NCBI GenBank assembly: GCA_021413965.1
Contig: JAIOPI010000019.1
Coordinates: forward strand, 4,585-68,584
Source: Lentisphaerota bacterium
GTDB lineage: Bacteria; Verrucomicrobiota; Kiritimatiellia; UBA8416; JAIOPI01
Direction of reading: 5' to 3'
Length of the DNA: 64,000 bases
Positions 25,936-64,000 of this stretch are shown here, piece by piece. The translations under genes were made by a program, and so were the position numbers. Every line of letters begins with the position of its first letter. The stretch's first letter is position 1. The notes under the pieces were generated by a model. The model ran no database searches. It saw nothing but the letters and a program-made list of their open reading frames with translations, and was not told the DNA's origin.

Positions 25936-25948
25936 GCGTGGCGAGGCG

Positions 25949-26464: not shown

Positions 26465-26473
26465 CCATTGCAC

Positions 26474-34533: not shown

Positions 34534-34543
34534 CGCGTGACCC

Positions 34544-35407: not shown

Positions 35408-35409
35408 GA

Positions 35410-36999
<1,590 letters not shown>

Positions 37000-37146
37000 G
37001 GGTACGCTCCAAATGACTGGCCCGCATTGCAAAACGCAACGCGGCATGTGCGAATGCCGGACTTCGAAATTCGGATTTCGAATGCTCGCCAGGCCTTGCC
37101 CGGTGGCAAGACCTGACGCGGTTCGGCTGGCCGTCGGATGCGATCC

Positions 37147-39516: not shown

Positions 39517-39789
39517 TTAGTTGTTCGCCTTCTTGTCGAAAGCGTCCATGCTCTCCTTCTGCACGGCTTCCTGGCCTGACTTGGTCATGACCTGGCTGGC
39601 GCCCGCGCCCTGCGTGTCCTTGCCTCCCAGCGTGCCGGTGATGCGGGCGAAGGTCACCTTGATCTGCTGGCCGAACAGCGCGACGATCAGGATCGCGCCG
39701 ATCGCGATGACCGCGACGATGATGATGTACTCGGTCATTCCCTGGCCGGATTTCCGACGCAGCGACTTGTTCTTCACTGTGGGCATCAT
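39517..39789 (-). CDS. flp: Flp family type IVb pilin
   Basis: ...RRKSGQGMTEYIIIVAVIAIGAILIVALF is the canonical Flp G/XXXXEY motif plus hydrophobic helix. GGAGG RBS. Confidence 0.9.
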   Translation of the reverse strand: MMPTVKNKSLRRKSGQGMTEYIIIVAVIAIGAILIVALFGQQIKVTFARITGTLGGKDTQGAGASQVMTKSGQEAVQKESMDAFDKKANN

Positions 39790-41321: not shown

Positions 41322-41660
41322 CTATCGATTGCGCAAGAAGCGGACTTCGACGCGCAAGCGCTCCACTTCGTCCAGCAAGTTCAGTAGCGTTCGAATCAGG
41401 GGTAGTTGTAGCCCGTGCACGACCCGCAGGTGTTCGATCCGCCGCGCCGTGCGAATGGCCTCTTCGCTGAATGCCATGGCCCCAACCGGCGGCAGCAGAA
41501 CGGGGTGCACGAGTCCGGCGCGACAGTAGATCAGCAAGGACCGTCGCGTGACGCCCGCGAGCCGGGCGGCCATATCGAGGCTGTACAGCGCATCCGGCTG
41601 GGGTTCGAACACCTCCAGGGCCTGGGCTGGCGCGCGATCGGCATCTGATGGCGTGTTCAT
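41322..41660 (-). CDS. cbpM: chaperone modulator CbpM-like (MerR-type HTH)
   Basis: ~110 aa with YSLDMAARLAGVTRRSLLIYCRAGLV HTH. ATGA overlap with the upstream cbpA stop; canonical cbpA-cbpM pairing. Confidence 0.6.
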   Translation of the reverse strand: MNTPSDADRAPAQALEVFEPQPDALYSLDMAARLAGVTRRSLLIYCRAGLVHPVLLPPVGAMAFSEEAIRTARRIEHLRVVHGLQLPLIRTLLNLLDEVERLRVEVRFLRNR

Positions 41661-42628
41661 GGGGATTGCCTCGGCTTCTGCCGCGCTTGGGCGGCCAGTT
41701 GTTCCCACAAAGCCTTTTCATCCGGTGTCAGCTGCGACGGGACCTGGATGCTCACGACGGCATAATAATCGCCCCGCGTCCCGTTTCCCGTGGGCAACCC
41801 CTTGCCCCGGAGACGAAAGTGCTTGCGCGCCGCTGTACCGGCCGGAATTTTCAGGGACACCTGCCCGTCCAGCGTGGGGATAAGGACAGCGGAACCCAAG
41901 ACCGCGTCCCATGGGGATACTTCCACATGGTGATAGAGGTCGGCACCGCGCACCTGGAAGTCCGGGTGTTGTGCGAACCTGACACTGAGGTAGAGATCCC
42001 CTGAGGGGCCTCCGCCGTGGCCGGTTTCGCCTTTGCCCGCCAGCCGAACGAGTTGGCCGTCCCGGACACCGGGCGGAATCCGGACCCGTAACGTCTGCGT
42101 GGTGGCTTGCCTGGTGCGGGGATCGGTGCGCTGCAACCGGATGGTGCGCGTCGACCCGCTCACAATTTCGGCGAGCGTCACCAGCAGGCCGCTCTCGACG
42201 TCCCGGCCACGCCGGGGGAATGGTGTGTTCTCTGCGCCCGCCGTGCGGCTCTGGTCAAATCCGGCGAAGGGGTGTTCACGGCCGCCAAAGAACTGCTCAA
42301 AGAAATCGCTGAAGCCGGTGCCCTCAAAATGGAATTCAGTCCCCGTGCCGGCCTGCCCGCCAAAGCCCCCAGGTGCTGCGGCTGCTTGCCGCGCGGGGTT
42401 GTTCCAGTCAGCGCCCAGCTCGTCGTATCGCCGCCGCTTGTCCGGATCGCTGAGAACTTCGTTGGCCTCGTTGATGTCCTTGAACCGGGATTCGGCGGCG
42501 GTTTTGTCCTTGGCGACGTCGGGATGGTAAAGGCGGGCGAGCCTGCGGAACGCCTTCTTGATGTCGTCGCCGGTCGCGTCGCGCGCCAACTCCAAAACTG
42601 CGTAGTAGTCCTTGTATTCGACCGGCAT
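41657..42628 (-). CDS. cbpA: curved-DNA-binding protein CbpA (DnaJ-like co-chaperone without Zn finger)
   Basis: J-domain KDYYAVLELARDATGDDIKKAFRRLARLYHPD with HPD. Gly-rich linker and two C-terminal DnaJ beta-domains; no CxxCxGxG repeats. Confidence 0.8.
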   Translation of the reverse strand: MPVEYKDYYAVLELARDATGDDIKKAFRRLARLYHPDVAKDKTAAESRFKDINEANEVLSDPDKRRRYDELGADWNNPARQAAAAPGGFGGQAGTGTEFHFEGTGFSDFFEQFFGGREHPFAGFDQSRTAGAENTPFPRRGRDVESGLLVTLAEIVSGSTRTIRLQRTDPRTRQATTQTLRVRIPPGVRDGQLVRLAGKGETGHGGGPSGDLYLSVRFAQHPDFQVRGADLYHHVEVSPWDAVLGSAVLIPTLDGQVSLKIPAGTAARKHFRLRGKGLPTGNGTRGDYYAVVSIQVPSQLTPDEKALWEQLAAQARQKPRQSP

Positions 42629-42727
42629 GACCGACTCCCGGGTGAGCACCCACGAGGGATGCGGCGATGGCGGTTGCGAGTCGCCGCGGCGTGGCGCCGG
42701 CAGGAAGCGCGCGGCACGTCGGGAGCC

Positions 42728-44308: not shown

Positions 44309-44887
44309 TCAAATGAAGCCAAGGACAGGTCTCTGCCAGCCCCCGGTCTCGGCGCCGATATGCATCTTCAGATACGAGGTGAGCGACGCCTCGGAAGACA
44401 AGCCCTTGCCATCGTTCAGCCAGGTCAGCAGGTACTTGGTGAACAGCCCGTGATCGCCGCTTTCAAACGCCTCGTACGTGGATGCCGCCAGAATCTTCCG
44501 GGTCCCTGACGTCTTCAGGCCGAGGCCGATGTAGCAGCAATCTAGCACCAGCATCGTCTGCGCGCGGGCAATGTCGGTGAGCGCAAGGTCGCCATCTCGC
44601 AGAATCAGTCGACCGGTTACGGCGTGACCCGCGAAGTACACCAGGTCGGGGTGACGCGCCAGCGCCTCCAGGACCTTGGCGCGCGTGACGTCCAGGCCCG
44701 TCAACGTCTGGACATCATCCCCCAGGCGCGTGAACGCCTGTGCCATTTCGGTGGCGTCATTCTCCGCGTATCGCAGTTGGGGATACCGATCGTAGGCGTT
44801 CAGCCCGATACAGAGCACCGTGTCGGCTCCCGCACTCATCAGCACCGTGGCGATGAGCGCACCGAGCAGGATCTTCGCGCGACGCAT
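44309..44887 (-). CDS. minimal secreted caspase-family (peptidase C14-like) protein
   Basis: Signal peptide MRRAKILLGALIATVLMSAGA. His block YFAGHAV and Cys block LVLDCCYIG are in caspase-like order and spacing; 192 aa. Confidence 0.5.
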   Translation of the reverse strand: MRRAKILLGALIATVLMSAGADTVLCIGLNAYDRYPQLRYAENDATEMAQAFTRLGDDVQTLTGLDVTRAKVLEALARHPDLVYFAGHAVTGRLILRDGDLALTDIARAQTMLVLDCCYIGLGLKTSGTRKILAASTYEAFESGDHGLFTKYLLTWLNDGKGLSSEASLTSYLKMHIGAETGGWQRPVLGFI

Positions 44888-44994
44888 GAGCGGGGGCTCC
44901 TTGTTGAAGCGGTTGCCGGAGCGCGGCCACCGGTCGGGTCATGAGGCAAGTGGGATTCAGATGAGATGACATTACGGGCGCTCGCCGGTCGTGA

Positions 44995-50504: not shown

Positions 50505-51041
50505 TTAGAAGCGCCAGTTGACCAGAACCATGCCGGGTGCCAGTTCGTCCGGCAGCGCCGTGAACCACGCATTGGCGGGGAGGAGATTCACCAGGCCGAT
50601 CTGCACCCCGGTTTCCGCATTCTCCGCGTAGTTGACGAATCCGAATTGAAGGCCCGTCAAGTCGCCCGCATAGTTCACCAGCCCCGTCTGCAGACCCTTC
50701 ATGCGTCCGTCGGTGTAGTTCACGAACCCGTTCTGCCAGCCGAGAAAGTCGCCCTTCGTGTAGTTGACCGACGCCCACTGAACGCCCGTGTAGTTGTCTG
50801 CGTAGTTGAGTATGAACGCGAGGCTCAGGCCCTTGCTGTCACCCGTGGATCCGTTCACCAGGCCCAGGGCCAGCGCCGACTGTTGATTCTCGCCCCAAAT
50901 GTTGAGGATCAGGCCTTCCACCGTCTCGCTCCGGTCGACCAGCGCGATATCCGGCGTCAAACTGAGCTGGAGTGGTGCGTTGGCGGCGAATGTTCCGCCC
51001 GCAATCAGGGCAATTCCCAGGCAAGTCAGGAGTGTCTTCAT
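50505..51041 (-). CDS. secreted protein with five tandem ~14-aa G-[VWL]-Q-x-G-x-VNY-[AT] repeats
   Basis: Signal peptide MKTLLTCLGIALIAGGTFA. Repeats GVQWASVNYT / GWQNGFVNYT / GLQTGLVNYA / GLQFGFVNYA / GVQIGLVNLL. Confidence 0.5.
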   Translation of the reverse strand: MKTLLTCLGIALIAGGTFAANAPLQLSLTPDIALVDRSETVEGLILNIWGENQQSALALGLVNGSTGDSKGLSLAFILNYADNYTGVQWASVNYTKGDFLGWQNGFVNYTDGRMKGLQTGLVNYAGDLTGLQFGFVNYAENAETGVQIGLVNLLPANAWFTALPDELAPGMVLVNWRF

Positions 51042-51056
51042 GGCGTATCGTTCCCG

Positions 51057-51409: not shown

Positions 51410-53851
51410 TTATGGAGACCAGGTCACGCGCAGGCGGTAGAAGTCATTTGTGCCAATGCCGGCGGGGTCGAGGCAGAGGAATCGGTTGCTGGCGCTGACG
51501 TAGGCCACGTCGCCCGTGGCAAGATCCGACCAGCCGGACATGCCATGGCTGCGTTGCACGTGGTACCCAACCGCCGTTCCTGCCTGGGATTGGGTCGCGC
51601 TGCCCCAGTTGCCAACCACGGCGTCACCGCCCGGCAGCGCCTGCCATGCCACGCCGGGACGGCCGCTGCCGTCGATGGTCACCCCCGAGAGCGCAAACGC
51701 CATCGGCGCCAGCGGATCCAGGCCGAAGGCGGTCTTCACCCGGAACGGAATCCCGTCTTCGCCGGCCGCGTCAGGATTCCGGGGATCATGCGCGAATCCC
51801 GTGAACGCGTAAGCCTCGAAATCGTTCACCCCGTCACCGTTGCTGTCGGTGTAGCCGTCAACGGGACCGGCGCCCGCGGTCGTCAGATTGGCGAAGTGCT
51901 GGTACTCCCAATCGTCGCCCAGGACGTCGCCGTCCGTGTCGGCGGGGCTCAGCGTCAACACGCTGTTGCTGATGGACGTCGGCACGCTCAAGGGCATGGG
52001 GAAATAGTGATTCGTACGGACGAAGCCCGCCGTTTCCCAGTCGTCCGCCACGCGATCGCCGTCCTGGTCGAGGAACGCGCGCACGCAGTGGGTGCCGTTC
52101 GACAGCCCGGCCAGGCGGAACGCGAAGGCATTGCCGGGCCAGTGCGCGGCGTCAGCGGTGTTGGGCAGTGTGATTTGGGCTTCCGACTCGGGCGCGAAGC
52201 CGGGGCCTGCAAAGGCCTGGACAACAAACTGACCGTTGGTGGCCTTCCCGAAGTAGAACAGTGATCCGGAAATGGAATACGGGCCGTCCGGCTGGTCGGT
52301 CAGGTCGACGCGGAAGGCGCGCGCGACGGACCAGGCGCCCGTGGTTTGCGGGTTGAGCCCCCGCGCGCGCCAGTAATACGTCCCCGGCGGCAGCTGAGCA
52401 TCTCCGGCACGAACCGGCAGGCGATAGACAAAACGCCCATTCTGATCGGGATAGGGCGCCAGGAAGGTGGCGTCGATTATTTTGGCCCCAAAGTCCGCAC
52501 TGCCCGCGACCTGCACCGAGACGCGGGACGCGCCGCTCGCCCCGGACCAGCTGAGGTCGATGCCAGCCGTGGTGAACACATGGCTGTCGGCGGTGACCAG
52601 CACCGGGGCGGTCAAGGTGGGCGGATAGGTCACGGTGAACGTGCTCGAGGTGATCAATTGGTCCGAGCCGTTGACGACATGATAGGCCAGCCACTCGTAA
52701 GCGCCCTGCGGCAAACCGTTCACGCCGCTGTTCTGGAAATCCACTTCATAAAGCCACGCGCGCGGTGCCGCGATGGTGCGATTGAGCACGTTGGGCTTTC
52801 CAGGGAGGCTCGCGCTGCGGATGATGATGTGATAGGTCAGGGCGCCGTCCTGTGGCGGCCACGCAACCCGCGCGTAGCCGGGAAGCGCATAGCCGGGCTG
52901 GCTGGCATTCGGCTGCGAGTCGCTCAATTCCAGCAGGACGGGGCCCACGCGACCCCAGGCGATGCGACTGGGGCGCGCTGGCGCGAGGCCGGCCGGCTCG
53001 CCGGCGTTCCACGCCCCGTTGGTGTTGGCGTCGTAATAGGCGAAGAACCAGGCGTCACCTTCCCGCAGCCGGCCGCTGTCCCACGTGCGGATCGTCAGGC
53101 TTCGGGGGTGGGCGCCAGTCAGATTCGTCACGGTCACCGCGGCATCAGGGGCGCCATCCATCGTGGCCGCGTGGTAGGCCAATACACGGAGAGGACCGGC
53201 ATCGAGCGTGCCGCCGTAAGACACCATGAACAGCACCTCGGGCACGGGTGTTGCAGCCGCATCGGCGGGATTGCCGAGTCCGTTCGTGGCCAGGGATGTC
53301 GGATCCACGCCGCCGAGAAATTCGGACCGGTTGCGCCATCCATCGGCATCGCCGTCACAATGGGCATCGAACACGCGCGGGTCCAACATCATGGAGGCTT
53401 CCCACGCATCGCCCTGGCCGTCGAAATCGGTGTAGGCGGCACCGAAGATGCGAAAACGATTGCTGCCGGTCGAGGCCCAGTCGAAGAAATCCGAAAGACC
53501 CGTGCCCCGTGTGTCCGCGTTACGGGGATTCAGGGCGCGGCCCGTGGTGACGAGGATTTGATATTCGGCCAGATTGTTGAGTCCGTCGAGATCGGGATCG
53601 CCGAGCGCGCCGTCAACACCGGCATCGGAGGACTCGTCGAAGCCGTACGCCTGTTCCCAAGCATCGGGAAGACCATCGCCATCGGTATCCGGTTCAACCG
53701 CGGTGGTCGGCGTGGAAGACGGCGATGGGGCGGCCGCGAGCAGCGCAAGTGCGCAGAAGCCCTGTAGAAGACCGCCGCAGGCCCAGGTAGTCGCTGTCGC
53801 TCGCCAAGGCAAGACCGCCCCCTTGTCCTCCGGTTTCACAGGCCGGTGCAC
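51410..53851 (-). CDS. large secreted protein with thrombospondin type-3-like Ca-binding repeats and Ig/FN3-like beta domains
   Basis: Signal peptide, then repeated D-x-D-x-DG-x-x-D-x-x-E motifs (DTDGDGLPDAWE, DPDLDGLNNLAE, DTDGDVLGDDWE, DSNGDGVNDFEA). 813 aa. Confidence 0.55.
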   Translation of the reverse strand: MHRPVKPEDKGAVLPWRATATTWACGGLLQGFCALALLAAAPSPSSTPTTAVEPDTDGDGLPDAWEQAYGFDESSDAGVDGALGDPDLDGLNNLAEYQILVTTGRALNPRNADTRGTGLSDFFDWASTGSNRFRIFGAAYTDFDGQGDAWEASMMLDPRVFDAHCDGDADGWRNRSEFLGGVDPTSLATNGLGNPADAAATPVPEVLFMVSYGGTLDAGPLRVLAYHAATMDGAPDAAVTVTNLTGAHPRSLTIRTWDSGRLREGDAWFFAYYDANTNGAWNAGEPAGLAPARPSRIAWGRVGPVLLELSDSQPNASQPGYALPGYARVAWPPQDGALTYHIIIRSASLPGKPNVLNRTIAAPRAWLYEVDFQNSGVNGLPQGAYEWLAYHVVNGSDQLITSSTFTVTYPPTLTAPVLVTADSHVFTTAGIDLSWSGASGASRVSVQVAGSADFGAKIIDATFLAPYPDQNGRFVYRLPVRAGDAQLPPGTYYWRARGLNPQTTGAWSVARAFRVDLTDQPDGPYSISGSLFYFGKATNGQFVVQAFAGPGFAPESEAQITLPNTADAAHWPGNAFAFRLAGLSNGTHCVRAFLDQDGDRVADDWETAGFVRTNHYFPMPLSVPTSISNSVLTLSPADTDGDVLGDDWEYQHFANLTTAGAGPVDGYTDSNGDGVNDFEAYAFTGFAHDPRNPDAAGEDGIPFRVKTAFGLDPLAPMAFALSGVTIDGSGRPGVAWQALPGGDAVVGNWGSATQSQAGTAVGYHVQRSHGMSGWSDLATGDVAYVSASNRFLCLDPAGIGTNDFYRLRVTWSP

Positions 53852-53900: not shown

Positions 53901-56900
53901 TCAGCGCAAGTCGAGCATGCCCTGCACGTGACGGGTCTTGTCTGCCAGGGCCTCGACGCGGGTCTTCAAGCCGGCATCTGCCAGAATAGCGGTGCCCAGC
54001 CCGGTGGTCTGGAGCGGCGCGCGCGAGCCCACGCAGGCCGCCGCCATGGCGATTTCCGCGGAATCCTGGTTTTGCTTCAGGTAGGCCAGGGACTGGCGCA
54101 CGGCGGCGGGTGGCGCATCCGTCAGTAGTTTTCCGAGTGCCTGCACGACGGCCCGGGCGGCTTGGGCGTGGTGTTCGTAGGCGCGGCGCACCGCCAACTC
54201 GCGATCATTCACGAGCCGCCCGCCATCCACAACCTGTCCGGTTTTCTCGGCGTCCTGGCAGGCGACGACAAAGTTGTTGAGAAGCTTGCCTGCCTGGCAC
54301 AGCGCCAGATTCAAGTCATAGGCGTCGAGGGTGCCGCCGCCCGTGTGGTACCGCACCAAGTCATCCAGGGTGCCGATACTGCCTTCATCGGTCGGGATGA
54401 ACTGGATGTGCGCCTGCCAGCGATATTGCTCAGGGACCGCCCAGGTCGTGTTAACCGCCCCCATGCCGGAGTCCGCCCAGCCAAGAAGCACCGCCTCGAA
54501 AAGCGCCTGCTGCCCGGCGCGGGGACTCTCCTTGATCATCTTCTGACCCACCGCGCGCAACTCCTCGGCCACGCTTCCGAACTTGCTCTCGTCGAGGCCG
54601 CCGGCCGCCGCATCCGCCCAGACGCGAAGCCGCGGGTAGTCGGCCACCACGGTTTGTGATTCGAGCGCCTTCGGCACGGCCGGCAGCGTGAAGGCGATCT
54701 TGGGCTGGCTGTCCCGCTCCTTGAACCGGCGCGGGCTGTTGTCCACCGCGGGGTCCGCGACCTGGTAGAGGTACGCCAGGTAATTCTGGATCTGGGCGTT
54801 GGCGCGCTGCAAATCATTGGTGAGGGATGCCGTCAGCGATTGCATCCACGTGGCATAGAGGTTGGTGTACTGCGACGTATGCCCCGGCCATTCGAAGGAA
54901 GGGGTGGGCGCTGAGAAAAGCGTGTACAGCGCCTGCATGTCGCGGCGTTGCCAGGCCGTGGCCACCTGGTCGAGGGTCTGGCGAGTCGCCTTGGGCTTCC
55001 ACTCGCTGGCGGCCGGACCTTCCACCTGGCGGGCGTCATCGCCGATGTTCAGCGCCAGCTCGCGCGTGATGGCATCGTAATCGGGACGCATGAACTGGAA
55101 CTGCCAGGCGCCGGGCTGAAGCTTCAAGGCCTCGCCGCTGCGCACCGGCGTGAAGGTCGTTGTCCCCTTGGCCGCGTAGCGAACGCCCGCCACCGGCGGC
55201 TGCCCCGGTTCCGCCACGGCGGGGACATTCACGGTCACGCTCACCGGTGCCGTCTCGAACGCCCCGACCGCCAGCTCCGCGCCGCCGCCCGGCACGAGTG
55301 CCACGGTTTTGGTCTGAGAGACATACCCGCGCTTGCCGCTGTCCAGCCGGACGTCCACCTTGGCGCTCGCGGTGGCCGCTACGTCCAGCAACTGCTTGGT
55401 ACCGGCGGCGCACTCGCCCCACTTCTGGCTGCCGCTGTTGATCACGACCGGCTGTCCGCTCTGATTCACGACGCGCAGGCAGAAGAGCCGCTGCTGCTTG
55501 TCGAGTTCGGCCAGCATGGCCTTGCCGGGCTCCGCGAAGAGCCGCGCCGCGCCATCCGCCACCGCGCGCAGCGCCTGCAGCCGGGCTTGGCGCGTTTCCA
55601 CCGGGTCGCGCTCTGCGGCGAGCGCCTGTACCTTCGTGCCGAGCCCCGCGCCGATCTGTTGGAGGGCTTTGGCCGTTCCGGCGCCGCTCCAGATGTCCGT
55701 GTACGTCTGCTGCATGGCCGCCACGCGCGCCACGATGTTGCTCAGCGCGCGGGCGTCGGCCCCGGCGACCTCGCCCTGCACGCGCGCCAGTTCTCCCTGA
55801 AGCGCGGCCACCCGCGAGTCGCGCAATCCCGCCGTGAGCCCGTCCCGCGTGGCCCGGACCTGCTGCAGCATCGCCTGATAGTTCTCCTCGGAAAAGATGC
55901 GCGTTTCCGCGGCGCGGCGCAGGCTCTTCTCAAGGCTGTCGACCACGGCCACGCTGCCTGGCGTCGGCGTCAGTGTGCTCAGCAGGCGCCCGCAGGAATT
56001 GGTGAACGCCTCGCCGACGGTCGCCCAGAGCGGGCGAATGGATGGCGTATCCAACAGGGCACGTTCCGTGTTGGCCAGCGCGACACATTCCTCGGCGGCC
56101 TTACCCAGGCCCGCGGCGTCGGTCGCTCCGGCCAGCGTCTTGAGGGTGCCCAGGCTGGTCGTGACATGGCTGAGGCGGTCGGTGGAGGCGGCCCGCGCCT
56201 TGTCAACGTCGGCCAGCGCGGCATCCGCCGCCGCGTCGGCATGCACGGCGCGCATGGCCGTGTTCAGGGCGCGCAGCGCATCGCGATCCGCATCCCCGGC
56301 GGTCATGTCCAGCTCCTGGTAGTGACGGCGCGCGCTCTCGGTCTGGCTGCCGGTGATGCGGGTAAAGGCCCCCGCCACGGCGCTCTTGAGCCGCGCTTCC
56401 ACGGCGGGCCGATTGGTGCCGGCCGCGTCGCGCACGCCCGTGTAGTCCTTCAGCAGCGCGGTCAGCAATTCCGGCGTGGTGGCGGCCTTGGCCCGCGTCT
56501 CAATTCCGGCGATCCGATCCGCCATCACCAGCGCGCCCAGTTTGGACTCGGCCAGGGCGGCCAGGCGGTCGAATTCCGGTCCCGCCAGCGTGACCAATCC
56601 GGGCGCCGTGGTCCGCAACGCGGTCAGGGCCTTGTAGCTTTCCGGCGTGGGCGTCGTAGACTGCTGCGCGAGGTAAGCCGTGAATCGCGTTCGCAGTTGT
56701 TCCGTGACCGGCCGGAATGCGGCATCACGGTCGGCGGCGGCAATCCCGGGCCAGATCTTGCCGTTCTGCGCGTTGAGTTCGCTGGAGAGAGCCTCGAGCC
56801 CGGGCACGTCCTTGGCCGCCACGGTGACGGGGATCTTCTGTGTCAGCGCGCGCACCGTCAGCGCGAGATCCAGTTTGCCGAGCGCGGCCGCCATGGCGGC

Positions 56901-59900
56901 GCTGGCCCGCTCGTGCGCGTCCGCGGCGACCGGCGCGGGGCGCGCGAGCTTCCAGGCGTCCAGCACCTTCGCAGCCGCGTCCCGGTTCTGTGCCGAAATC
57001 GCCGTGGCGAAATTGTTGCTGAAGGCGGCGGCGACCTGCAGCCCCTGCTTGTTGAGCTGCTCCGTGACGGCCTTCCAGCGCGGCTCGCCGGGCTCCTTGA
57101 GCGCCCGTGCCTGAATCGCTTCAAGCGTCTGGTTGAGTTCGGTGACGTATGCGGCCTCCGGCTGCGGCGCGGTGGCGAGGAACTTCGCCAGGCCGCTCTC
57201 GAACGCGCGCTGCGGCAGCCAGCGCGCGAGTACGACGGCCACGACGATGACGACGACCGCCGCCGCGGCGATACCGATGGGTTTCCAGGGAATCTTGATC
57301 GGCGGCCGCGGCGGTTTGGCGGGCTTCGGCGGCTTCTCGGGTTTGGGCGCCGGTGCGGGCTTCGGTTCGGGAACGGGCTTTGGCTGAGGTTTGGGCGCGG
57401 GCTCCGGCTTCGGCGCGGGCTCCGGCTTGGCGGCCGGCTTCGGTGCCGGCGCGGGTTTGGGTTCCGGCTTGGCCGCGGGAGCGGCTGGCGCGGGCTCAGG
57501 AAGCGGCGCGGGTTTGGGCGCCTCTGCCGGTTTGGCGGGCTCGCGAGGTTTCTCGGGCTCGGGCGCCGGCTTCGATACGTGGGCAGGCTTGGCGGCCGGC
57601 TTGATTTGGACCGTCTCATCCGGCGCGGGCGGCTTGGCGGGTTCCACCGCGGGCTTCGGCGCTTCTACGACGGGCTTCGGGGCTTCCGCCACGGGGGGCG
57701 CGGGCGCCGCGCCGCGCGCCGCCTCGGCCACGGCTTCCTTCGCCCGCGCGTCCTCGATGATCTTGCGCATGGTCGCTTCGTCGAAGGCAGGCATCGCCAT
57801 CGTCTCGCCTTCCGATACGGGAGGCTGGAGCGCCATGGTCTTTGGTTCGTCGTAGACGGGCAGCGCCATCGTCTTGGCTTCGGCCTCTTCATCCACGGCC
57901 GGGGCCGCGGCGGCGGCGGTCGCGCGGCGCTCGGCGGCAAGGCGCGCCTGCTCGTCGTCCCACATCAGGAGAATCTCGGCATCGCGAAGCGCGGCGGCGA
58001 ACGCCGTCGGGTCGAGCTGTTCCGCCGCGCTGGCGGACGTGGCGCGCTCGAGCAGGCGGGCGAGATTGGGGAAGCGCTTATCCAGCGGCAGGGTCCGTCG
58101 CAGGCCCTCGCGCCCGGCGGCACCTGAGGGGCCGCCGCCAACGATGTCGCGCATGGCCAGCGCCAGCGAACGCGTGTCCGCTTTGCGCGTCAGTTCCCAG
58201 ATCGGCGAGGGGCGCCCCTCGAGGCTCGAGCCCGGGCTGCCTTCGAAGGCATGCGCGACGCCCCAATCCAACCACTTCAGGCCCGCGCCATCCGCCGCGG
58301 TCAGGAACAGGCTTTCGGCGGAAAGCAACGTGGCGCGCAGCCCTTCGCCGTGCAGATCGACCAGCAAGTCGGCCAGGCTGGCGAACAGTTCGAGCACCTG
58401 GGCCAGATCCGCCCGCTGCAGCGTGTTGGGTTTCGGGAAGACCGTTTTCGGGCTGGTCTGGTAGAAGCGCTCGTCGAAGTCCGTGACGAGATACAGGGCG
58501 GCCTGGCCCTGCTCACGGGCGCGCCACGCGTGGTCGAGATACGTGACGAGCAGCTTGTGCTGGATCTGGGCGAGGTTGCCCGCGCGCTCGTGGAAAAGTT
58601 TCGCATCGATGGCGCCCTGGGCCTGGCGAATCAGGACGACACGGCCGTCGCGCAGGCGGCGCGCGCGCAGGAGGGCCCCGATGTCATCGCGCCGCAGCGT
58701 CGCATCGATGAAGTAGGTTTCGCGCCCCTGCACGAGCGAGCCGAGCACCTGCTCGATGGCCTGGCTCATGGCCTCTGCGGAGGGGAAGCGTTGCTCCGGC
58801 TTCCAGGCCAGACTGCGCGACGTCACGTCCTTCAACACCGGAATCGTCTGGAAGATGGGATGGGTGAACGGCAGGACGGCCGGCTTCTGGGAGCGGCCGA
58901 TGAACTCCATCCAGCCGCTCGGGCCGTCCGCGAGCCGCGGCAGGGGCGATTCGCCTGTCAGGGCTTCATAGAAGCACAGCCCCATGGAGTACAGGTCGGA
59001 TTGCGCCGACCCGCGGTCCTTGCCGCTCTGCGCAAACTCGGGGGCCATGTAGTCCGGCGTGCCCGGCACCTGCCCGCCCGTCATCGTGCCGCTGACGTCG
59101 CGCGCGATCCCCAAGTCGAAAATCTTGGCCCGCTCCGGGTGCCCGGCGGGGCTGTACAGGTTGCCCGGCTTGATGTCGCGGTGGATGATGCCGTGAACGT
59201 GGAGATGGTGCAGGGCTTTGAGGTAGTTCACGAACAGCTCGAGCGCTTCCGTGAGATCCATGCCCGTGCGGGACTGGCGGATGCGTCCGCGCAGGGTGAA
59301 CTCGGGCATCCCGTCGAGGTACTCGAGTACCAGGAAGTGCTGCTCCTCGGTGCCGAGGCGCCCCTTGACGAAATCGCGGAACAGCACGATGTGCGGGTGC
59401 GTGTACTGCTGCAGCACGCGCGCCTCGCGCAGGAAGCGATCCACCTGCGACTCCGCGGTCAGGCGTTTGAGCGCCACGATCTCGCCGTTGCTCCGCCGCT
59501 GAGCCTTGTAGACCTCCCCGAAACCGCCCCGGCCGATGAACTCCAGCAACTCGTACACTTCATCGGAGTCGTCCTGGCGGATGACGCGCCGCTCGATCTT
59601 CTTGAACTCGCGCAGGACCTGCTCGAAGGTCTGGTAGCGATCGTCGCGGGACGCATGCAGGCACGTGCGGATGAACGTGGGCGCGCCGTTCAGCACCTGC
59701 AGGCCCGGCAGGTCCGTCTTGATGCGCGGCGCCTCACCGGAGTGCCAGCGCTGCACGTAGCCGATCATCGCGTTGTCGCCCAGCGGCGGGAACGGCAGCT
59801 TGCCCGTCAGAATCTGGAAAAACACGACGCCGAAACTGAAGATGTCCGACTTCTCGTCGCCGGAGAAGTTGTTGCCGAGCTTGACCCAGTCCGGGGCCAT

Positions 59901-60470
59901 GTAGTCGAACGACCCCTTCAGCCCGGCCGTGCTGGTGGCGCTGCCGTCGGACTTGCGCGCGATGCCGAAGTCGATCAGCCGAACGTGCCCGTCCCGCGTG
60001 AGGAAGATGTTGTGCGGCTTCAGGTCGCGGTGGATGAAGCCCAGCTGGCAGGCATAGATCAGGGCGTCGAGGGTTTGCTGGGTCACGGAGCGCACCAGGT
60101 CCCAGGGCAGCCCGCGGGGATGCTTGGCAAGCGTGTCCTTGAGTTCCTCGCCGTCGAGGTACTCCATGACGAGGCAGCGCGCTTCGTCCCACTCACCGGC
60201 GCGCCACACGAACGAGTCGCGATAGCGCACGATATTGGGGTGTGTCAGGGCCTTGAGAATCTCGATCTGCCGGATGAAGCGGGAGTCCTTGGAGCTTTCC
60301 TCGCCGGCCTCGGCACGCCCCTTCTTGAGCGCCACGGTCTCCCCGTACGCGACGTTGGGATTGGAGCGGGAGATGCAGGTGGCTTGATACACATCCCCCT
60401 GGGCGCCTTTCCCGATGAGATCGAGGATCTCATAGTCGCCAATGATATTCTTTGCGGAGGATTCTGCCAT
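53901..60470 (-). CDS. 2189-aa membrane Ser/Thr protein kinase: two tandem active kinase domains + degenerate third kinase-like region + Pro/Ala/Lys-rich linker + TM + ~1150-aa extracytoplasmic helical domain
   Basis: Kinase 1: IGKGAQGDVY...ALK...HRDLKPHNIFL...DFG...GSFDYMAPD. Kinase 2: IGRGGFGEVY...ALK...HRDIKPGNLY...DLGIAR...GTPDYMAPE. Then a PAPKPEP repeat block and TM IGIAAAAVVVIVVAVVLA. Confidence 0.85.
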   Translation of the reverse strand: MAESSAKNIIGDYEILDLIGKGAQGDVYQATCISRSNPNVAYGETVALKKGRAEAGEESSKDSRFIRQIEILKALTHPNIVRYRDSFVWRAGEWDEARCLVMEYLDGEELKDTLAKHPRGLPWDLVRSVTQQTLDALIYACQLGFIHRDLKPHNIFLTRDGHVRLIDFGIARKSDGSATSTAGLKGSFDYMAPDWVKLGNNFSGDEKSDIFSFGVVFFQILTGKLPFPPLGDNAMIGYVQRWHSGEAPRIKTDLPGLQVLNGAPTFIRTCLHASRDDRYQTFEQVLREFKKIERRVIRQDDSDEVYELLEFIGRGGFGEVYKAQRRSNGEIVALKRLTAESQVDRFLREARVLQQYTHPHIVLFRDFVKGRLGTEEQHFLVLEYLDGMPEFTLRGRIRQSRTGMDLTEALELFVNYLKALHHLHVHGIIHRDIKPGNLYSPAGHPERAKIFDLGIARDVSGTMTGGQVPGTPDYMAPEFAQSGKDRGSAQSDLYSMGLCFYEALTGESPLPRLADGPSGWMEFIGRSQKPAVLPFTHPIFQTIPVLKDVTSRSLAWKPEQRFPSAEAMSQAIEQVLGSLVQGRETYFIDATLRRDDIGALLRARRLRDGRVVLIRQAQGAIDAKLFHERAGNLAQIQHKLLVTYLDHAWRAREQGQAALYLVTDFDERFYQTSPKTVFPKPNTLQRADLAQVLELFASLADLLVDLHGEGLRATLLSAESLFLTAADGAGLKWLDWGVAHAFEGSPGSSLEGRPSPIWELTRKADTRSLALAMRDIVGGGPSGAAGREGLRRTLPLDKRFPNLARLLERATSASAAEQLDPTAFAAALRDAEILLMWDDEQARLAAERRATAAAAAPAVDEEAEAKTMALPVYDEPKTMALQPPVSEGETMAMPAFDEATMRKIIEDARAKEAVAEAARGAAPAPPVAEAPKPVVEAPKPAVEPAKPPAPDETVQIKPAAKPAHVSKPAPEPEKPREPAKPAEAPKPAPLPEPAPAAPAAKPEPKPAPAPKPAAKPEPAPKPEPAPKPQPKPVPEPKPAPAPKPEKPPKPAKPPRPPIKIPWKPIGIAAAAVVVIVVAVVLARWLPQRAFESGLAKFLATAPQPEAAYVTELNQTLEAIQARALKEPGEPRWKAVTEQLNKQGLQVAAAFSNNFATAISAQNRDAAAKVLDAWKLARPAPVAADAHERASAAMAAALGKLDLALTVRALTQKIPVTVAAKDVPGLEALSSELNAQNGKIWPGIAAADRDAAFRPVTEQLRTRFTAYLAQQSTTPTPESYKALTALRTTAPGLVTLAGPEFDRLAALAESKLGALVMADRIAGIETRAKAATTPELLTALLKDYTGVRDAAGTNRPAVEARLKSAVAGAFTRITGSQTESARRHYQELDMTAGDADRDALRALNTAMRAVHADAAADAALADVDKARAASTDRLSHVTTSLGTLKTLAGATDAAGLGKAAEECVALANTERALLDTPSIRPLWATVGEAFTNSCGRLLSTLTPTPGSVAVVDSLEKSLRRAAETRIFSEENYQAMLQQVRATRDGLTAGLRDSRVAALQGELARVQGEVAGADARALSNIVARVAAMQQTYTDIWSGAGTAKALQQIGAGLGTKVQALAAERDPVETRQARLQALRAVADGAARLFAEPGKAMLAELDKQQRLFCLRVVNQSGQPVVINSGSQKWGECAAGTKQLLDVAATASAKVDVRLDSGKRGYVSQTKTVALVPGGGAELAVGAFETAPVSVTVNVPAVAEPGQPPVAGVRYAAKGTTTFTPVRSGEALKLQPGAWQFQFMRPDYDAITRELALNIGDDARQVEGPAASEWKPKATRQTLDQVATAWQRRDMQALYTLFSAPTPSFEWPGHTSQYTNLYATWMQSLTASLTNDLQRANAQIQNYLAYLYQVADPAVDNSPRRFKERDSQPKIAFTLPAVPKALESQTVVADYPRLRVWADAAAGGLDESKFGSVAEELRAVGQKMIKESPRAGQQALFEAVLLGWADSGMGAVNTTWAVPEQYRWQAHIQFIPTDEGSIGTLDDLVRYHTGGGTLDAYDLNLALCQAGKLLNNFVVACQDAEKTGQVVDGGRLVNDRELAVRRAYEHHAQAARAVVQALGKLLTDAPPAAVRQSLAYLKQNQDSAEIAMAAACVGSRAPLQTTGLGTAILADAGLKTRVEALADKTRHVQGMLDLR
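57300..57720 (-). repeat. low-complexity coding repeat (PAPKPEP-type linker) inside the kinase gene
   Basis: Direct degenerate repeats of GGCTTCGG/GGGTTTGG units in the DNA; translates to (P/A)(E/K)P repeats. Confidence 0.5.
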
Positions 60471-60503
60471 GACCGCGTTACGTGTGCCGGCTGCCGCGCG
60501 CCG

Positions 60504-62564
60504 TTACCGCCCCATCTTGGCTTTTAGCTTCGGGAGTACGGCGTGCACCTGCTCCAGCACGTCGAAGGTGATCCGGCGTAATTCAGCCTGACGGCCCGCG
60601 TCCTTGGATTCAAGCAAGACGGTCGCCTGGCCGGCGGCCGCCGCGAGGTCGTCGAGCACGGGGGAGACCTCATCATCCGGGAAATTGCTCCATACGTCGC
60701 CGACGGCGCGCGGGATGCCAGCCTCGGCCTCGACCAGGCGCTGAATGGCCGCAGTGCGGTAGGCGCCCACTCGCCGAATCAAATCCGTGGCCTGCGCCTG
60801 TGTATCCGGTCCTGCCGAGCCCGTCGGCGGTTGCTCGCTCAGCCAGGCGTCCATCCGGTCGAGGCCCGCCGTCCAGAGGCGCAACTCGCTCTCGATCAGC
60901 CCCGGCAGCGTGGTGTCGCCGGAGCGCGTGAATTCGGCCAGCTCGGGCAGCACCGGCATGAGGCTCTGCAGACGGGCCGCGTCGCGCCGGCCCTCGCGGA
61001 CGAAGTCCTGCACCTGCTTGACGGCAGGGTCCACCTGCAGCGCCGTCGTCGAGGTCGACGAGGTGGTGGACGTGGTCGTGCTCGTGCTCGACGTCGTGGT
61101 GCGCGGCGCCGTGGTCGTCGTTGACGTGGTCGAGGTGCTCGTCGTGGGTCGGGCCGACGTGGTGGTCGAGGTCGTCGACGTCGTCGTCCGCCGTGCGGAG
61201 GTGCTGGTGGAGGTCGTGGACGAGGTGGTGGTGCGCAGCGCCGAGGTCGTCGTGCTCGACGACGAGGTGCTGGACGTGACCGCGATCCGCGGGGCGCTGG
61301 TCGAGGAGGTGGTCGACGACGTTGTGGTTGAGCTTGTGGACGTGGTCACCGGCCGCGTGGTCGTGGTCGGCTTGGGCGATGCGATCTTGGTCACCTCCTG
61401 GGTGGACGCGACGGCGACGGGTGGTGTCGACGAAGGCGTGGCGGTAACCGGCGCGTGCGTGCCGACGACGCCGTCGCCGCGCAGCTTCCAGACGAGGGCC
61501 AGAATGCCGATCATCAGCGCCACCGCGATGCCGCCCCCGATCATGCCCCACGGCAGCGACTTGGCGGAAGCCGGGGGGGTGATGGCGGCGGCCGCCGCGG
61601 CGGCTGCCGGCGTGGGCGTCACCGGTCTGGCGGTCCGTTCGGCCCGCGGCGGAGGTGTGCTGGGCGTTGCCGCGCGTGCGGAACCCGCACGGTCATCCGT
61701 GGGCGTCTCGCGGTCGCCGCGCTCCGCGGTATCCCGATCCTCTTGCACCGGTGCAGGCCGTGGAGCCGGCGCCGGCACGACCGGCGTAGGGGGCTCCGCA
61801 TCGTCCGCGCTTGCGGGCGGCAGCTTGCCCACGCGAACCAGGACGACGGTGATGTTGTCGTCACCGCCGGCCTTGTTGGCCTCCTCGATCAGCGCCCGCG
61901 CCAGCGGCATGAGCTCCCCGCCCAGGTGTTTCTCGATGACCTTGGCGATCAGGCGGTCGTTGACCATGCGGCTGAGCCCGTCTGAACAGATCAGGTACAG
62001 GTCGCCTTCTCGCACATCCGTCGGCGTCTGTTCGAGCTCCGCGGTATCCTGCAGCCCGACGGCGCGCGTGATGACGTTGCGGAACATTGCGGGCAGGGCT
62101 TTCTCGTCGGTCACCCCGGCCATATTCGCCACGGAATGGTCGCGGGTCACCTGCTCCAGCTTGCCGCCGCGAAAGCGGTACAGGCGACTGTCTCCGGCGT
62201 GGCAGGCCACGGCGCGCGACGGCTGCTCAGCCGAGAACGCAATGAGGACACAGGTGGTGCCGGTTCCCTTGTTGCCGCGATCTTCGGCCCGCTGCTTGAT
62301 CCAAGTGCTGGCCTTGTTGACGGTGGCCTGCAACAGGGCCAGTTTCTGGCCCATGCGCATGTCCGGGGTGGCGCCCTTCTCAAAGGCCTGCTCAAGGTGC
62401 TCGACCAGGGCGGCGCTGGCCACATCCCCTTCCGCCGCACCGCCCATGCCATCGGCCACGCAAAACACACCGAAGGCGGGCAGGCGGATCAGCGAATCTT
62501 CATTGTTCTTCCGCTTGCGGCCCTGATCGGTGAACTCCGCCGATTCCAGATATTCAAACGGCAT
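60504..62564 (-). CDS. PP2C-family Ser/Thr phosphatase, membrane-anchored, with mucin-like Ser/Thr-rich ectodomain segment
   Basis: N-terminal PP2C fold (FCVADGMGGAAEGDVAS..., DDNITVVLV), TM WGMIGGGIAVALMIGILALVW, ~110-aa S/T stretch, C-terminal globular domain. Sits 33 nt upstream of the kinase gene on the same strand. Confidence 0.8.
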   Translation of the reverse strand: MPFEYLESAEFTDQGRKRKNNEDSLIRLPAFGVFCVADGMGGAAEGDVASAALVEHLEQAFEKGATPDMRMGQKLALLQATVNKASTWIKQRAEDRGNKGTGTTCVLIAFSAEQPSRAVACHAGDSRLYRFRGGKLEQVTRDHSVANMAGVTDEKALPAMFRNVITRAVGLQDTAELEQTPTDVREGDLYLICSDGLSRMVNDRLIAKVIEKHLGGELMPLARALIEEANKAGGDDNITVVLVRVGKLPPASADDAEPPTPVVPAPAPRPAPVQEDRDTAERGDRETPTDDRAGSARAATPSTPPPRAERTARPVTPTPAAAAAAAAITPPASAKSLPWGMIGGGIAVALMIGILALVWKLRGDGVVGTHAPVTATPSSTPPVAVASTQEVTKIASPKPTTTTRPVTTSTSSTTTSSTTSSTSAPRIAVTSSTSSSSTTTSALRTTTSSTTSTSTSARRTTTSTTSTTTSARPTTSTSTTSTTTTAPRTTTSSTSTTTSTTSSTSTTALQVDPAVKQVQDFVREGRRDAARLQSLMPVLPELAEFTRSGDTTLPGLIESELRLWTAGLDRMDAWLSEQPPTGSAGPDTQAQATDLIRRVGAYRTAAIQRLVEAEAGIPRAVGDVWSNFPDDEVSPVLDDLAAAAGQATVLLESKDAGRQAELRRITFDVLEQVHAVLPKLKAKMGR
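61041..61373 (-). repeat. degenerate tandem DNA repeats encoding the Ser/Thr-rich (TTTSSTTS...) segment of the PP2C gene
   Basis: Repeated GTCGTCGA/GGTGGTCG units seen directly in the sequence. Confidence 0.5.
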
Positions 62565-62736: not shown

Positions 62737-64000
62737 TCAGCGTTTTGCCGTCACGGGCAACTGCCAGTACGACGGCATGATTTTGCTGGAGACGGCTCCA
62801 CCACCTATGACGATGCCGCGCTTCGCCTCGGGCGGCATCTCCGGATCGGCAGTCACCTCGGCCTGGCCATAGAGCACATAGTCGATCAAGCCCAGCGCCA
62901 CCGGTTCGCTGATGTTCATGTAGTTGTGCAAGAAATAGGGCGATCCGAAAATTCCCTGGCGCGACTTCAGTTCCGGCGTTTCCACCACGAAGGCTTCCGT
63001 GCGGAAGATCTCGCGCAAGACCGCGTCCGAGCCGCCCACCACCTGGTTGTTGAAGATGATCAAGCCCGGCAGCCGCCCGGCGTCGAATTCCGGGATTTCG
63101 CCAAACTTGTTGCCCGAGATCGTGCCGGTGGTCAGCACCCACACGAACCCGATGTCCGTATTGAAGTCATCGGGCGTCACGAACTGAAGGAAGCGTCCGG
63201 CGTTGATCTCGAGCGGATTCGTCCGCTCGCCAATCTGCTGCCCCTCAAGGGCCAACAGGTCGCCGGCGATGAAGTTCACCGGCCCGACGCCCGTGTCGTT
63301 GGCATCAAGAATGACCGCGCGCGGCGCCGAGAGGGACACGTCGCCCGAGCCGGAAACCAGGTTCACCAGAACCGGGCTTGCGCTGTCGTGCTGGAGATAC
63401 ACGTTGCGGCCGCTGATCTCATCCAGCAGCCCGACCTCGACGCGAATCCGGTCCTTGGCGCTGCCGATGTCGCCGCCCGCGGTGAGGATGAGATTGTCCG
63501 CGTTGATCAGCGATCCGTTATCCGAGACGCTGCCCCCGCGGAATTCGGCGTCGCCGGTATCGACGTTGCCCATCCCGATGTCGCCGTCGACTTCGGCCAA
63601 GACGTCGTCCGCCGTTAGGTCTTCGAATACGAAATCCCCGCCGCCCTGGAGTTTGAAGCTGCCGCCGACGTCGATCGTGTCGATTTCCATGTCACCGTCC
63701 ACGGTGAGATCGGCATCACCGCCCACATCAAGCGCGGCGCCAGTGTAGCCGCCGCCGATGTCCAGCGTGGCATCGCCGCCCGCGCGGACCGAACTGCCGG
63801 AGAGCGAGCCGCCCGACTTGAAGCTCAGGTCGTTGGCCGAGGTCAGGCCGCCGCGCAGCTGCTGGTTGAGCAGGGCCACGTTCGGGCCCGGTATGTCCGC
63901 CGGGACGAAGGGTGAAAGCACGCGCACCGGCACCGCCACCGGGCCAGAGGCGACGCTGCTGAGCTCCGAGATGTTGACGTTGCCGAGATCCACGGAGGTG
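62737..64000 (-). CDS. C-terminal part of a large protein with GGD-type beta-helix-like repeats (gene start beyond window end)
   Basis: Repeats such as RAGGDATLDIGGGYTGAALDVGGDADLTVDGDMEIDTIDVGGSFKLQGGGDF. Same strand, immediately upstream of the PP2C-kinase pair. Confidence 0.45.
   Translation of the reverse strand, partial: TSVDLGNVNISELSSVASGPVAVPVRVLSPFVPADIPGPNVALLNQQLRGGLTSANDLSFKSGGSLSGSSVRAGGDATLDIGGGYTGAALDVGGDADLTVDGDMEIDTIDVGGSFKLQGGGDFVFEDLTADDVLAEVDGDIGMGNVDTGDAEFRGGSVSDNGSLINADNLILTAGGDIGSAKDRIRVEVGLLDEISGRNVYLQHDSASPVLVNLVSGSGDVSLSAPRAVILDANDTGVGPVNFIAGDLLALEGQQIGERTNPLEINAGRFLQFVTPDDFNTDIGFVWVLTTGTISGNKFGEIPEFDAGRLPGLIIFNNQVVGGSDAVLREIFRTEAFVVETPELKSRQGIFGSPYFLHNYMNISEPVALGLIDYVLYGQAEVTADPEMPPEAKRGIVIGGGAVSSKIMPSYWQLPVTAKR

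Follow-up and report, generated by a model that had tools for sequence, protein, structure and literature searches.

Which cellular machine may be served by a PP2C phosphatase gene that lies beside the gene of a giant membrane Ser/Thr kinase is the question raised by the locus described here. The pair was found in a 64,000-nucleotide stretch of a Lentisphaerota bacterium genome (contig JAIOPI010000019.1; the whole stretch is hereafter called the window), in which an FHA-rich locus for a Tad (Flp) pilus is also present. Judging from the sequence, we think it somewhat probable that the PP2C and the tandem-kinase receptor would form a dedicated transmembrane threonine-phosphorylation switch for the Tad pilus machine, which lies 13-22 kilobases (kb) away. 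The first-pass annotation of the window had named the pair as a candidate controller of the FHA-equipped Tad system, a proposal that gained support both from the association of the pair with Tad genes in related loci and from the intact FHA signatures of the Tad proteins. The domain content of the proteins, their conserved catalytic residues, the pairing of the two genes, the neighbourhood association and the FHA signatures were all observed directly.

The phosphatase and the tandem kinase

The region had been annotated as a PP2C gene followed by the gene of a giant Ser/Thr kinase, and both open reading frames (ORFs) were found exactly there, on the same strand and with 33 nt between the PP2C stop and the kinase. 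The genes and their cytoplasmic parts are as follows.

60504-62564, minus strand: PP2C (PPM) Ser/Thr phosphatase gene, 686 amino acids (aa), single-pass membrane protein (ORF and profile matches)
61830-62531, minus strand: PP2C catalytic domain, aa 12-245, predicted to be cytoplasmic (NCBIfam match and motifs)
53901-60470, minus strand: tandem-kinase receptor gene, 2189 aa (ORF with two Pkinase matches)
59613-60434, minus strand: kinase domain 1 (KD1), aa 13-286 (Pkinase, alignment)
58746-59558, minus strand: kinase domain 2 (KD2), aa 305-575 (Pkinase, alignment)
57921-58700, minus strand: third, degenerate kinase-like domain, aa 591-850 (BLASTP, AlphaFold model)
57282-57773, minus strand: Pro/Ala/Lys-rich linker, aa 900-1063 (composition)

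The window has a G+C content of about 66%, and both ORFs have a high third-position G+C, as in real genes. The phosphatase matched the Pfam family PP2C_2 (E-value 1.7e-14; 54 bits against a cut-off of 24), as well as SpoIIE, and aligned over aa 12-243 with the NCBIfam model for Stp1/IreP phosphatases. The latter match scored 184 bits (E 2e-54), below the equivalog cut-off of 230, so that the protein is to be seen as a homolog and not as an equivalog. The metal-binding motifs RxxNED, DGMGG, GDSR, DG and DN, read directly from the protein sequence, were all present. By its predicted fold and Asp motifs, the product of 60504-62564 is assigned to the PPM/PP2C phosphatases of the Stp1/PstP type.

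The 2189-aa protein is made up of KD1, KD2, the degenerate kinase-like domain, the linker (P 28%, A 22% and K 13% over aa 861-1075), one transmembrane helix and an ectodomain of about 1100 aa, and was matched by Pkinase of Pfam in two stretches (E 4e-89). In order to call the kinase motifs, the N-terminal 620 aa were aligned with 120 homologs and with solved kinases. KD2 contains G313/G315/G318, K335, E349, D432 of the HRD motif, N437, D452 and APE478, each of which is at least 95% conserved among the 120 homologs, and its sole departure from the canon is D452-L-G in place of DFG, with Leu found in 111 of the 120. Having all the motifs of a Hanks-type Ser/Thr kinase bar the DLG, KD2 is predicted to be active. 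In KD1 the residues G20/G22/G25, K49, H147-R148-D149, N154 and D167-F-G are all present, APD stands for APE, and Gln68 takes the position of the alphaC Glu, which leaves the domain without the canonical Lys-Glu bridge. Position 68 is Q in 95 of the 120 homologs, with R, T or S among the others listed. KD1 is accordingly described here as a predicted kinase fold with a catalytic core and without the Lys-Glu salt bridge, and the initial call of two apparently active kinase domains stood for KD2, whereas for KD1 the catalytic residues were found and the alphaC Glu was not. Across the 120 homologs, KD1 and KD2 keep their catalytic Lys, Asp and Asn almost without exception (about 100%), so that both domains are under selection as nucleotide-binding or catalytic units.

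The third, degenerate kinase-like region suspected at first was confirmed by its homology to KD2 domains of the same family, as it aligned with KD2 of P0095 (BLASTP, 2e-13) and with the third kinase domain of P0072 (2e-11). Its catalytic motifs are lost: there is no Gly loop, Arg replaces the VAIK Lys, HRD is absent and DWG stands for DFG. Similarity to this domain was seen in 74 of the 120 best family homologs. Taken alone, the domain gave no match in Pfam or among PDB sequences, and its homology is visible only against family KD2 domains. In an AlphaFold2 model of aa 1-860 (mean predicted local distance difference test score (pLDDT) 81.5; predicted template modelling score 0.66) its N-lobe is of the kinase type, with five strands and a helix, and its C-lobe is poorly defined. 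By the alignments and the model, the region of aa 591-850 is a pseudokinase derived from KD2. An anti-phage defence function for the kinase was also considered and was rejected, as the MADS6 kinase model scored 230 bits against a cut-off of 460, a generic kinase similarity.

The FHA-rich Tad locus

The Tad region of the window spans about 25.9-41.2 kb and holds the following genes.

25913-27451, plus strand: prepilin peptidase (A24) and TadE-like pseudopilin (Pfam Peptidase_A24, TadE)
30262-32262, minus strand: membrane protein with two FHA domains and a TPR region (Pfam FHA twice, TPR)
32270-33754, minus strand: membrane protein with a cytoplasmic FHA domain (Pfam FHA, E 3e-15; hydrophobic segment)
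33751-35440, minus strand: two T2SSF platform genes, TadB and TadC (Pfam T2SSF)
35410-37047, minus strand: FHA-CpaF ATPase with N-terminal FHA and T2SSE (FHA E 1.9e-18, T2SSE E 3.9e-58)
37147-38547, minus strand: secretin, CpaC/RcpA (Pfam Secretin, T2SS-T3SS_pil_N)
38575-39432, minus strand: RcpC/CpaB (Pfam RcpC, SAF)
39517-39789, minus strand: Flp-type pilin (…GQG/MTEYIIIVAVIAIG…; sequence read directly)
40052-41233, plus strand: short CpaF-family ATPase without FHA, 'T2SSE2' (Pfam T2SSE)

Four FHA domains are carried by three of these proteins, one on the CpaF motor and three on two inner-membrane proteins, and all four keep the GR...SxxH...NG phosphothreonine-binding signature. The short CpaF paralog is transcribed divergently from the Flp operon, and the T2SSF gene at 34544-35440 is 58% identical to the T2SSF of a related locus (L005) described below. 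Measured from the kinase stop, the distances are 12.7 kb to the short CpaF, 16.9 kb to the FHA-CpaF and 21.6 kb to the gene with two FHA domains and TPR, which agrees with the location near the FHA-rich tad locus, some 15-20 kb away, that was noted at first.

Transcription of the archaellum is under the control of the Arn network of archaea, to which Ser/Thr kinases, PP2A and the FHA protein ArnA belong. By analogy, the pair might control the expression of the Tad genes and not the machine itself, since phospho-signalling via FHA proteins can act on transcription, and the stretch between the two loci includes a MerR-like gene (41322-41708). Nevertheless, none of the FHA domains of the window is joined to a DNA-binding domain; they are parts of the motor ATPase and of Tad membrane proteins, and no transcription factor was conserved beside the family kinases in the related loci that were looked up. 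We consider control at the level of transcription to be very improbable.

Association of the pair with Tad genes in related loci

The best 120 database matches to the kinase (protein clusters listed) all span KD1 and KD2, covering about 26% of the query at about 50% identity. Their C-termini vary, with the kinase's own type of ectodomain in 64 of the 120 and TPR, FGE-sulfatase or PEGA otherwise, and no close full-length relative of the 2189-aa protein was found in the searched collections. Where the sources name them, the hosts of these database matches are Verrucomicrobia, Kiritimatiellae and similar organisms. A search with a DNA pattern made for the KD1 motif FDYMAPDF yielded 120 stretches of metagenome, 113 of which are family members. 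By these sequence comparisons, the tandem-kinase head is taken to define a large uncharacterised family in Verrucomicrobiota, Kiritimatiellia and relatives. The dual-kinase architecture, which had been thought uncommon, turned out to be the hallmark of this family (at least 120 clusters and 113 metagenome loci), and is uncommon only among characterised bacterial kinases. One member lies on a 45,850-bp contig (P0072) in which the kinase gives at least three Pkinase matches and is preceded by PP2C and an ortholog of the short ATPase. That ATPase is 80% identical to the copy in the window, its closest ortholog in the named collections, and the P0072 locus is probably the nearest relative of the kinase locus of the window. 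As P0072 shows, extra duplications of kinase domains recur in the family.

For the neighbourhood survey, ten family members were looked up by similarity or contig size, blind to context, and 78 generic single Ser/Thr-kinase loci, fetched by a KD2-motif-driven alignment search in the same scan, were used as the control set. The same search fetched two further family members in named genomes (L007 and L008), and these were added to the ten. PP2C was found directly upstream on the same strand in all ten looked-up loci (confirmed by tblastn for L001 and L006), as well as in 30 of the 33 metagenome loci that have at least 4 kb of upstream sequence. Tad-family genes were located no more than 10 kb away in nine of the ten, and in 10 of the 12 family loci against 0 of the 78 generic kinase loci (Fisher p = 1e-11). 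Co-occurrence with an FHA-tad locus, on which the first-pass annotation had made its proposal depend, was therefore found at the level of gene neighbourhood. The link between the kinase/PP2C pair and Tad is physical and statistical in kind.

The Tad genes near family kinases include those for Flp, prepilin peptidase, TadE/G, RcpC, secretin, FHA-CpaF and the short CpaF paralog. A whole Tad operon directly follows or precedes the pair in L002/L003, L004, L006 and L209. The order in the first three is PP2C, kinase, small Flp-like ORFs, A24 peptidase, TadE/TadG, RcpC, secretin and FHA-CpaF, on one strand in several loci, and in L209 the operon is divergent from PP2C. Fusions of FHA and T2SSE were visible in L002/L003, L005, L006, L106 and L143. 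In L208 and on the P0072 contig the short CpaF paralog is the only Tad gene beside the pair, and of the two named genomes L008 (Kiritimatiellia) has the ATPase and L007 (Verrucomicrobiota) does not. Of all Tad genes, it is the short ATPase that adjoins family kinases in the largest number of loci. The window copy is 65-81% identical to the ATPases beside the kinases of L006, L008, L208, the P0072 contig and about ten metagenome loci, with the metagenome copies at 71-74%. Eight contigs of coinciding size were found in the match lists of both the kinase and the short ATPase, lending independent support to the linkage.

Candidate phospho-motifs and the short ATPase

The juxtamembrane region of the kinase, past the pseudokinase, contains one further feature that bears on a possible link with FHA domains.

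57792-57881, minus strand: three acidic-x-T-M-A-[LM] motifs (T867, T878, T890), candidate autophosphorylation or FHA-docking sites, putative in function

The motifs read AKTMALP, DEPKTMALQ and GETMAMP. Across the family, 47 of 121 sequences, which are related and not independent, contain motifs of the T-[MLIV]-[AG]-T type after KD2, with 73 occurrences observed where shuffles gave an expectation of 9.9. When the whole window was translated in six frames, the pattern [DE]x0-2[PAGEK]T[ML]A[LMT] occurred only four times, three times in the kinase and once in the short CpaF. An identical 8-mer, DEPKTMAL, is present in the N-terminal tail of the short CpaF (40067-40090, plus strand) and in the kinase juxtamembrane region (57828-57851, minus strand). 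The codons of the two copies differ at four synonymous sites, so that the 8-mer is not a recent DNA copy, and a GGGAG ribosome-binding site upstream of the short CpaF ATG supports that start and thereby places DEPKTMAL inside the protein. The shared 8-mer is a lead only and not evidence of mechanism.

These observations raise the possibility that the kinase mainly controls the short FHA-less CpaF, for example in extension and retraction or in a switch between two motors, with the FHA proteins in second place or not involved at all. No other neighbour of the family kinases is conserved as well as the short ATPase, which is the sole nearby Tad gene in the P0072 contig and in L208; the ATPase is highly conserved (65-81% identity), and its tail bears the kinase's own DEPKTMAL in the window genome. 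In addition, longer orthologs of 480-510 aa have an N-terminal domain with a weak FHA/YscD-like similarity. This similarity falls short of the threshold (E 0.003-0.02), neither the tail nor a recognisable phospho-motif is present in most orthologs (362-365 aa), and FHA-CpaF fusions co-occur in the same loci. We consider such an ATPase-centred control, as the main function of the pair, to be fairly unlikely; it is compatible with a switch for the whole FHA-rich machine and does not exclude it.

Membrane helices, ectodomains and neighbouring genes

Both proteins are predicted to cross the membrane once, and the parts at and beyond the membrane are listed here.

61491-61547, minus strand: PP2C transmembrane helix, aa 340-358 (Kyte-Doolittle, 19-residue window, score 2.37)
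60960-61478, minus strand: PP2C Thr/Ser-rich low-complexity stretch outside the membrane, aa 363-535 (composition)
60507-60959, minus strand: PP2C C-terminal extracytoplasmic domain, aa 536-686, without known family
57213-57281, minus strand: kinase transmembrane helix, core aa 1064-1082 (hydropathy 2.92, the only such segment)
55491-57173, minus strand: kinase ectodomain part 1, about 560 aa of long alpha-helices (AlphaFold2 model m1ec64d57ca7a)
55020-55487, minus strand: kinase ectodomain part 2, two beta-sandwich domains, aa ~1662-1817 (strands at model 563-718)
53904-54989, minus strand: kinase ectodomain part 3, C-terminal helical domain, aa 1828-2189 (pLDDT mostly >90)

The first-pass annotation had described the PP2C as membrane-anchored with an ectodomain and the kinase as having a transmembrane segment followed by a large extracytoplasmic domain, and both descriptions agree with the hydropathy profiles: the sole hydrophobic segment of the PP2C (aa 340-358) has 328 aa beyond it and the single segment of the kinase (aa 1064-1082) about 1100 aa. 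In the PP2C the 173-aa stretch outside the membrane is 35% T and 22% S, with repeats such as TTTSSTSTS. It is mucin-like in look and could be glycosylated or act as an extended stalk. The C-terminal domain of the PP2C (about 150 aa) had no Pfam match at E<=1, no similarity to the kinase ectodomain and no match in tblastn of loci L001-L086.

The AlphaFold2 model of the kinase ectodomain was built with 23 homologs and has a mean pLDDT of 82.8. No Pfam family was matched by the ectodomain at E<=1 and, beyond generic Ig-like domains, no informative solved structure was matched; part 1 in particular gave neither a Pfam match nor an informative PDB fold match. The beta-sandwich part gave weak Foldseek matches to Ig-like domains (6fwv, 4oq1 and 5a9d), and conserved motifs were found within it. 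Neither PASTA nor any other named sensor was detected in the kinase with Pfam and NCBIfam. The C-terminal domain is rare, having 29 matches among 1.84 billion representative proteins in an exhaustive HMMER scan. Most of these form the C-terminus of 1100-2400-aa proteins of the tandem-kinase family, and about 10 are in short proteins of 160-560 aa, which are probably gene fragments.

Other genes in and around the two loci were noted as follows.

62737-63993, minus strand: C-terminal part of a large GGD/VGG-repeat protein, beta-helix or adhesin-like, 170 nt upstream of PP2C and running off the window end, with weak, below-cutoff Gp5_C and DUF2807 matches
51410-53851, minus strand: 813-aa ORF starting 49 nt past the kinase stop, with a signal-like N-terminus, DxDGD Ca-binding repeats and a weak, below-cutoff match to bacterial TSP3
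50505-51056, minus strand: 183-aa lipoprotein-like ORF of repeated G-x-V-N-Y / GLQ units, no Pfam family
44309-44938, minus strand: small caspase/CHAT-domain protein between the Tad and kinase loci
41322-42649, minus strand: DnaJ-type (CbpA-like) gene, then a MerR-like small regulator (41322-41708), beside the short CpaF paralog

The 813-aa ORF had no counterpart in loci L001-L086 by tblastn and is unrelated to the 836-aa ORF found downstream of the kinase in L193. In L193 a Peptidase_C13 protein, which belongs to the caspase-like clan, follows a family kinase. The DnaJ-type and MerR-like genes resemble a cbpA-cbpM/hspR pair. A scan of 50-64 kb of the window for promoters and terminators gave results at chance level only.

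Proposed mechanism

According to the mechanism that we propose, the ectodomain of about 1100 aa, with its helices, two beta-sandwiches and rare helical C-terminal domain, would sense a cue from the envelope or from a surface. The cue would activate the cytoplasmic head, composed of the canonical KD2, KD1 without the alphaC Glu and the pseudokinase, and the kinase would then phosphorylate threonines, among which those of its own juxtamembrane E/D-x-T-M-A-L motifs and of Tad components are probable targets. Once formed, these phosphothreonines may be bound by the four FHA domains on the Tad proteins, and in this manner the machine would be assembled or activated. The short FHA-less CpaF paralog, the most faithful neighbour of the kinase family, is a likely direct target or partner, and the PP2C would reverse the phosphorylation. 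The phosphorylation and binding steps, the signal sensed and the direction of control, be it activation or inhibition, are what we infer from the sequences.

Several observations weigh against a dedicated Tad switch. KD1 is without the alphaC Glu and is only a candidate for a second active kinase. By shuffling, the chance of any shared 8-mer is p ~0.01, and DEPKTMAL was noticed post hoc; no exact 6-mers were common to the kinase juxtamembrane region and the neighbouring genes in 16 other loci, and the scarcity of tails and phospho-motifs among short-ATPase orthologs, mentioned above, counts here as well. In the window itself the pair and the Tad genes are about 13 kb apart, and the genes in between (DnaJ, a caspase-like protein, DUF3943 and MlaA/MlaD) are unrelated. 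A Tad gene lies beyond the kinase in only 12 of the 39 metagenome loci with at least 1 kb of sequence past the stop. Among the 12 loci with 10-kb flanks, L007 and L207 have housekeeping neighbours only, as do most of the short metagenome fragments, and Tad adjacency is consequently frequent and not obligatory. Furthermore, the loci cannot be treated as independent in phylogenetic terms, and there may be redundancy in the metagenome set.

The same neighbourhoods could mean that the pair is a general-purpose regulator of the envelope or the cell cycle, with many substrates as for PknB/PstP, and that its proximity to Tad is a lineage-specific accident of gene order. Housekeeping genes adjoin the pair in the window, L007, L207, L103, L180 and L200, the 12 of 39 metagenome fragments are few, and the kinase domains score best against generic models of the PknB/StkP type. 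However, the association with Tad recurs in several arrangements (with Tad genes after the pair in the same orientation, with divergent Tad genes ahead of it, or with only the ATPase), and it spans at least Verrucomicrobiota and Kiritimatiellia-named records in which the kinases are only 35-55% identical. A neighbourhood that is kept despite rearrangement argues for selection. In addition, a CpaF ATPase was nearby in 0 of the 78 generic kinase loci, and PASTA or another cell-wall sensor is absent from the kinase. We therefore regard a general regulator as unlikely, and a switch for the Tad machine as the preferred reading.

On a broader scale, and much more tentatively, a dedicated Tad threonine-phosphorylation pathway may exist in Verrucomicrobiota, Kiritimatiellia and relatives, a proposal that we would not yet count on. 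In such a pathway the tandem-kinase receptor, with its giant sensor confined to the lineage, and the PP2C would gate the assembly or the motor choice of a Kil-like Tad machine post-translationally, phosphothreonine juxtamembrane motifs would dock FHA domains, and the second CpaF motor would be recruited or switched by the same code. If true, the kinase so far missing upstream of FHA-rich Tad systems would have been found, and there would be, for the first time, a functional reason for a bacterial receptor to have catalytic kinase domains in tandem.

Comparison with known systems

In the literature collection that we searched, there was no paper on bacterial tandem Hanks kinases and none on a kinase for Tad/FHA systems. 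Tandem kinases are familiar in eukaryotes, as RSK and MSK have two active domains, JAK has a pseudokinase and a kinase, and plants have tandem kinase proteins such as WTK1. The likeness is an analogy of architecture only: two or three kinase folds are present per chain, at least one of them is non-canonical or dead, and it could regulate the other. Unlike the eukaryotic examples, the third domain of the present kinase is the product of a KD2 duplication within the family, and the protein is a bacterial receptor with a transmembrane helix and a periplasmic sensor.

The PknB/PstP/FhaA-FhaB module of Actinobacteria also combines a membrane Hanks kinase with a membrane PP2C beside it and FHA partners, and according to PMC12077195, which cites Roumestand 2011, the FHA domain of FhaA docks onto the juxtamembrane region of PknB when this region is phosphorylated. 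The receptor described here differs in its tandem-kinase head, in having no PASTA ectodomain and in its neighbours, which are Tad genes and not genes for cell division or the cell wall. The NCBIfam model PknB_PASTA_kin scored 324 bits against a cut-off of 450 and covered the kinase domains only; as the PASTA domain is missing and the score is below the cut-off, the receptor is not a PknB/PASTA kinase. Among the control loci, those from actinobacteria had the FhaA/FhaB-PstP pattern and no CpaF.

The Kil Tad-like apparatus of Myxococcus xanthus is FHA-rich, and a phosphorylation cascade has been proposed upstream of it (PMC8460266, PMC12428579), although the word 'kinase' is absent from the main text of both papers; FHA-CpaF ATPases of class III have also been described (PMC12019362). 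The published work on Kil, on the Tad system of Bdellovibrio and on class III CpaF remarks on the FHA domains and suggests a phosphorylation cascade; no kinase is named for Kil and class III, and in the Bdellovibrio preprint histidine kinases are the only kinases mentioned. The Tad locus of the window resembles Kil and class III in its CpaF ATPase with an N-terminal FHA domain (35410-37047) and in the further FHA proteins of the cluster (32270-33754 and 30262-32262). In contrast to Kil, a kinase/PP2C pair is physically linked to the Tad machine in related loci, and a second, FHA-less CpaF paralog is present where Kil was described with a single ATPase (PMC8460266). Kil comes from Myxococcota, whereas the present lineage is Verrucomicrobiota/Kiritimatiellia-like. 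Kil is further marked by contact-dependent killing of prey and by a short secretin that lacks N0; the secretin of the window was characterised by its Pfam matches, Secretin and T2SS-T3SS_pil_N.

The closest parallel in logic may be the threonine phosphorylation pathway of the type VI secretion system (T6SS), in which PpkA, PppA and Fha1 control assembly in Pseudomonas aeruginosa and Agrobacterium tumefaciens (PMC5995506, PMC7817224). In each case the kinase is of the Hanks type, crosses the membrane once and has an extracytoplasmic sensor; it is accompanied by a cognate PP2C, FHA proteins are part of an envelope-spanning nanomachine, and the kinase and phosphatase genes cluster with those of the machine. 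Since the pair adjoins FHA-CpaF Tad operons in L002/L003, L005 and L006, the combination of kinase, PP2C and FHA proteins with the machine that marks the T6SS pathway is found here too. The machine here is a Tad/Flp pilus, two catalytic domains and a pseudokinase replace the one kinase domain, a domain of about 1100 aa of no known family replaces the vWA sensor, the PP2C is itself membrane-anchored, and four FHA domains lie on three proteins that include the motor ATPase. No T6SS family was present in any Pfam result for the window or the fetched loci, and phosphorylation is predicted here from the FHA signatures and candidate Thr motifs. As the machine differs, the pair is not a member of the T6SS pathway, though alike in logic.

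The lineages concerned have few genetic systems, and the pair is known here by computation. A physically linked writer and eraser nonetheless makes the cascade proposed for FHA-rich Tad machines concrete, as it can be asked which threonine, which FHA domain and which motor are involved, and the tandem head, with its canonical KD2 and a conserved KD1 without the alphaC Glu, marks a large bacterial kinase family of unexplored two-domain logic. If the switch proposed here is real, the threonine-phosphorylation logic of the T6SS would be extended to the type IV filament superfamily.

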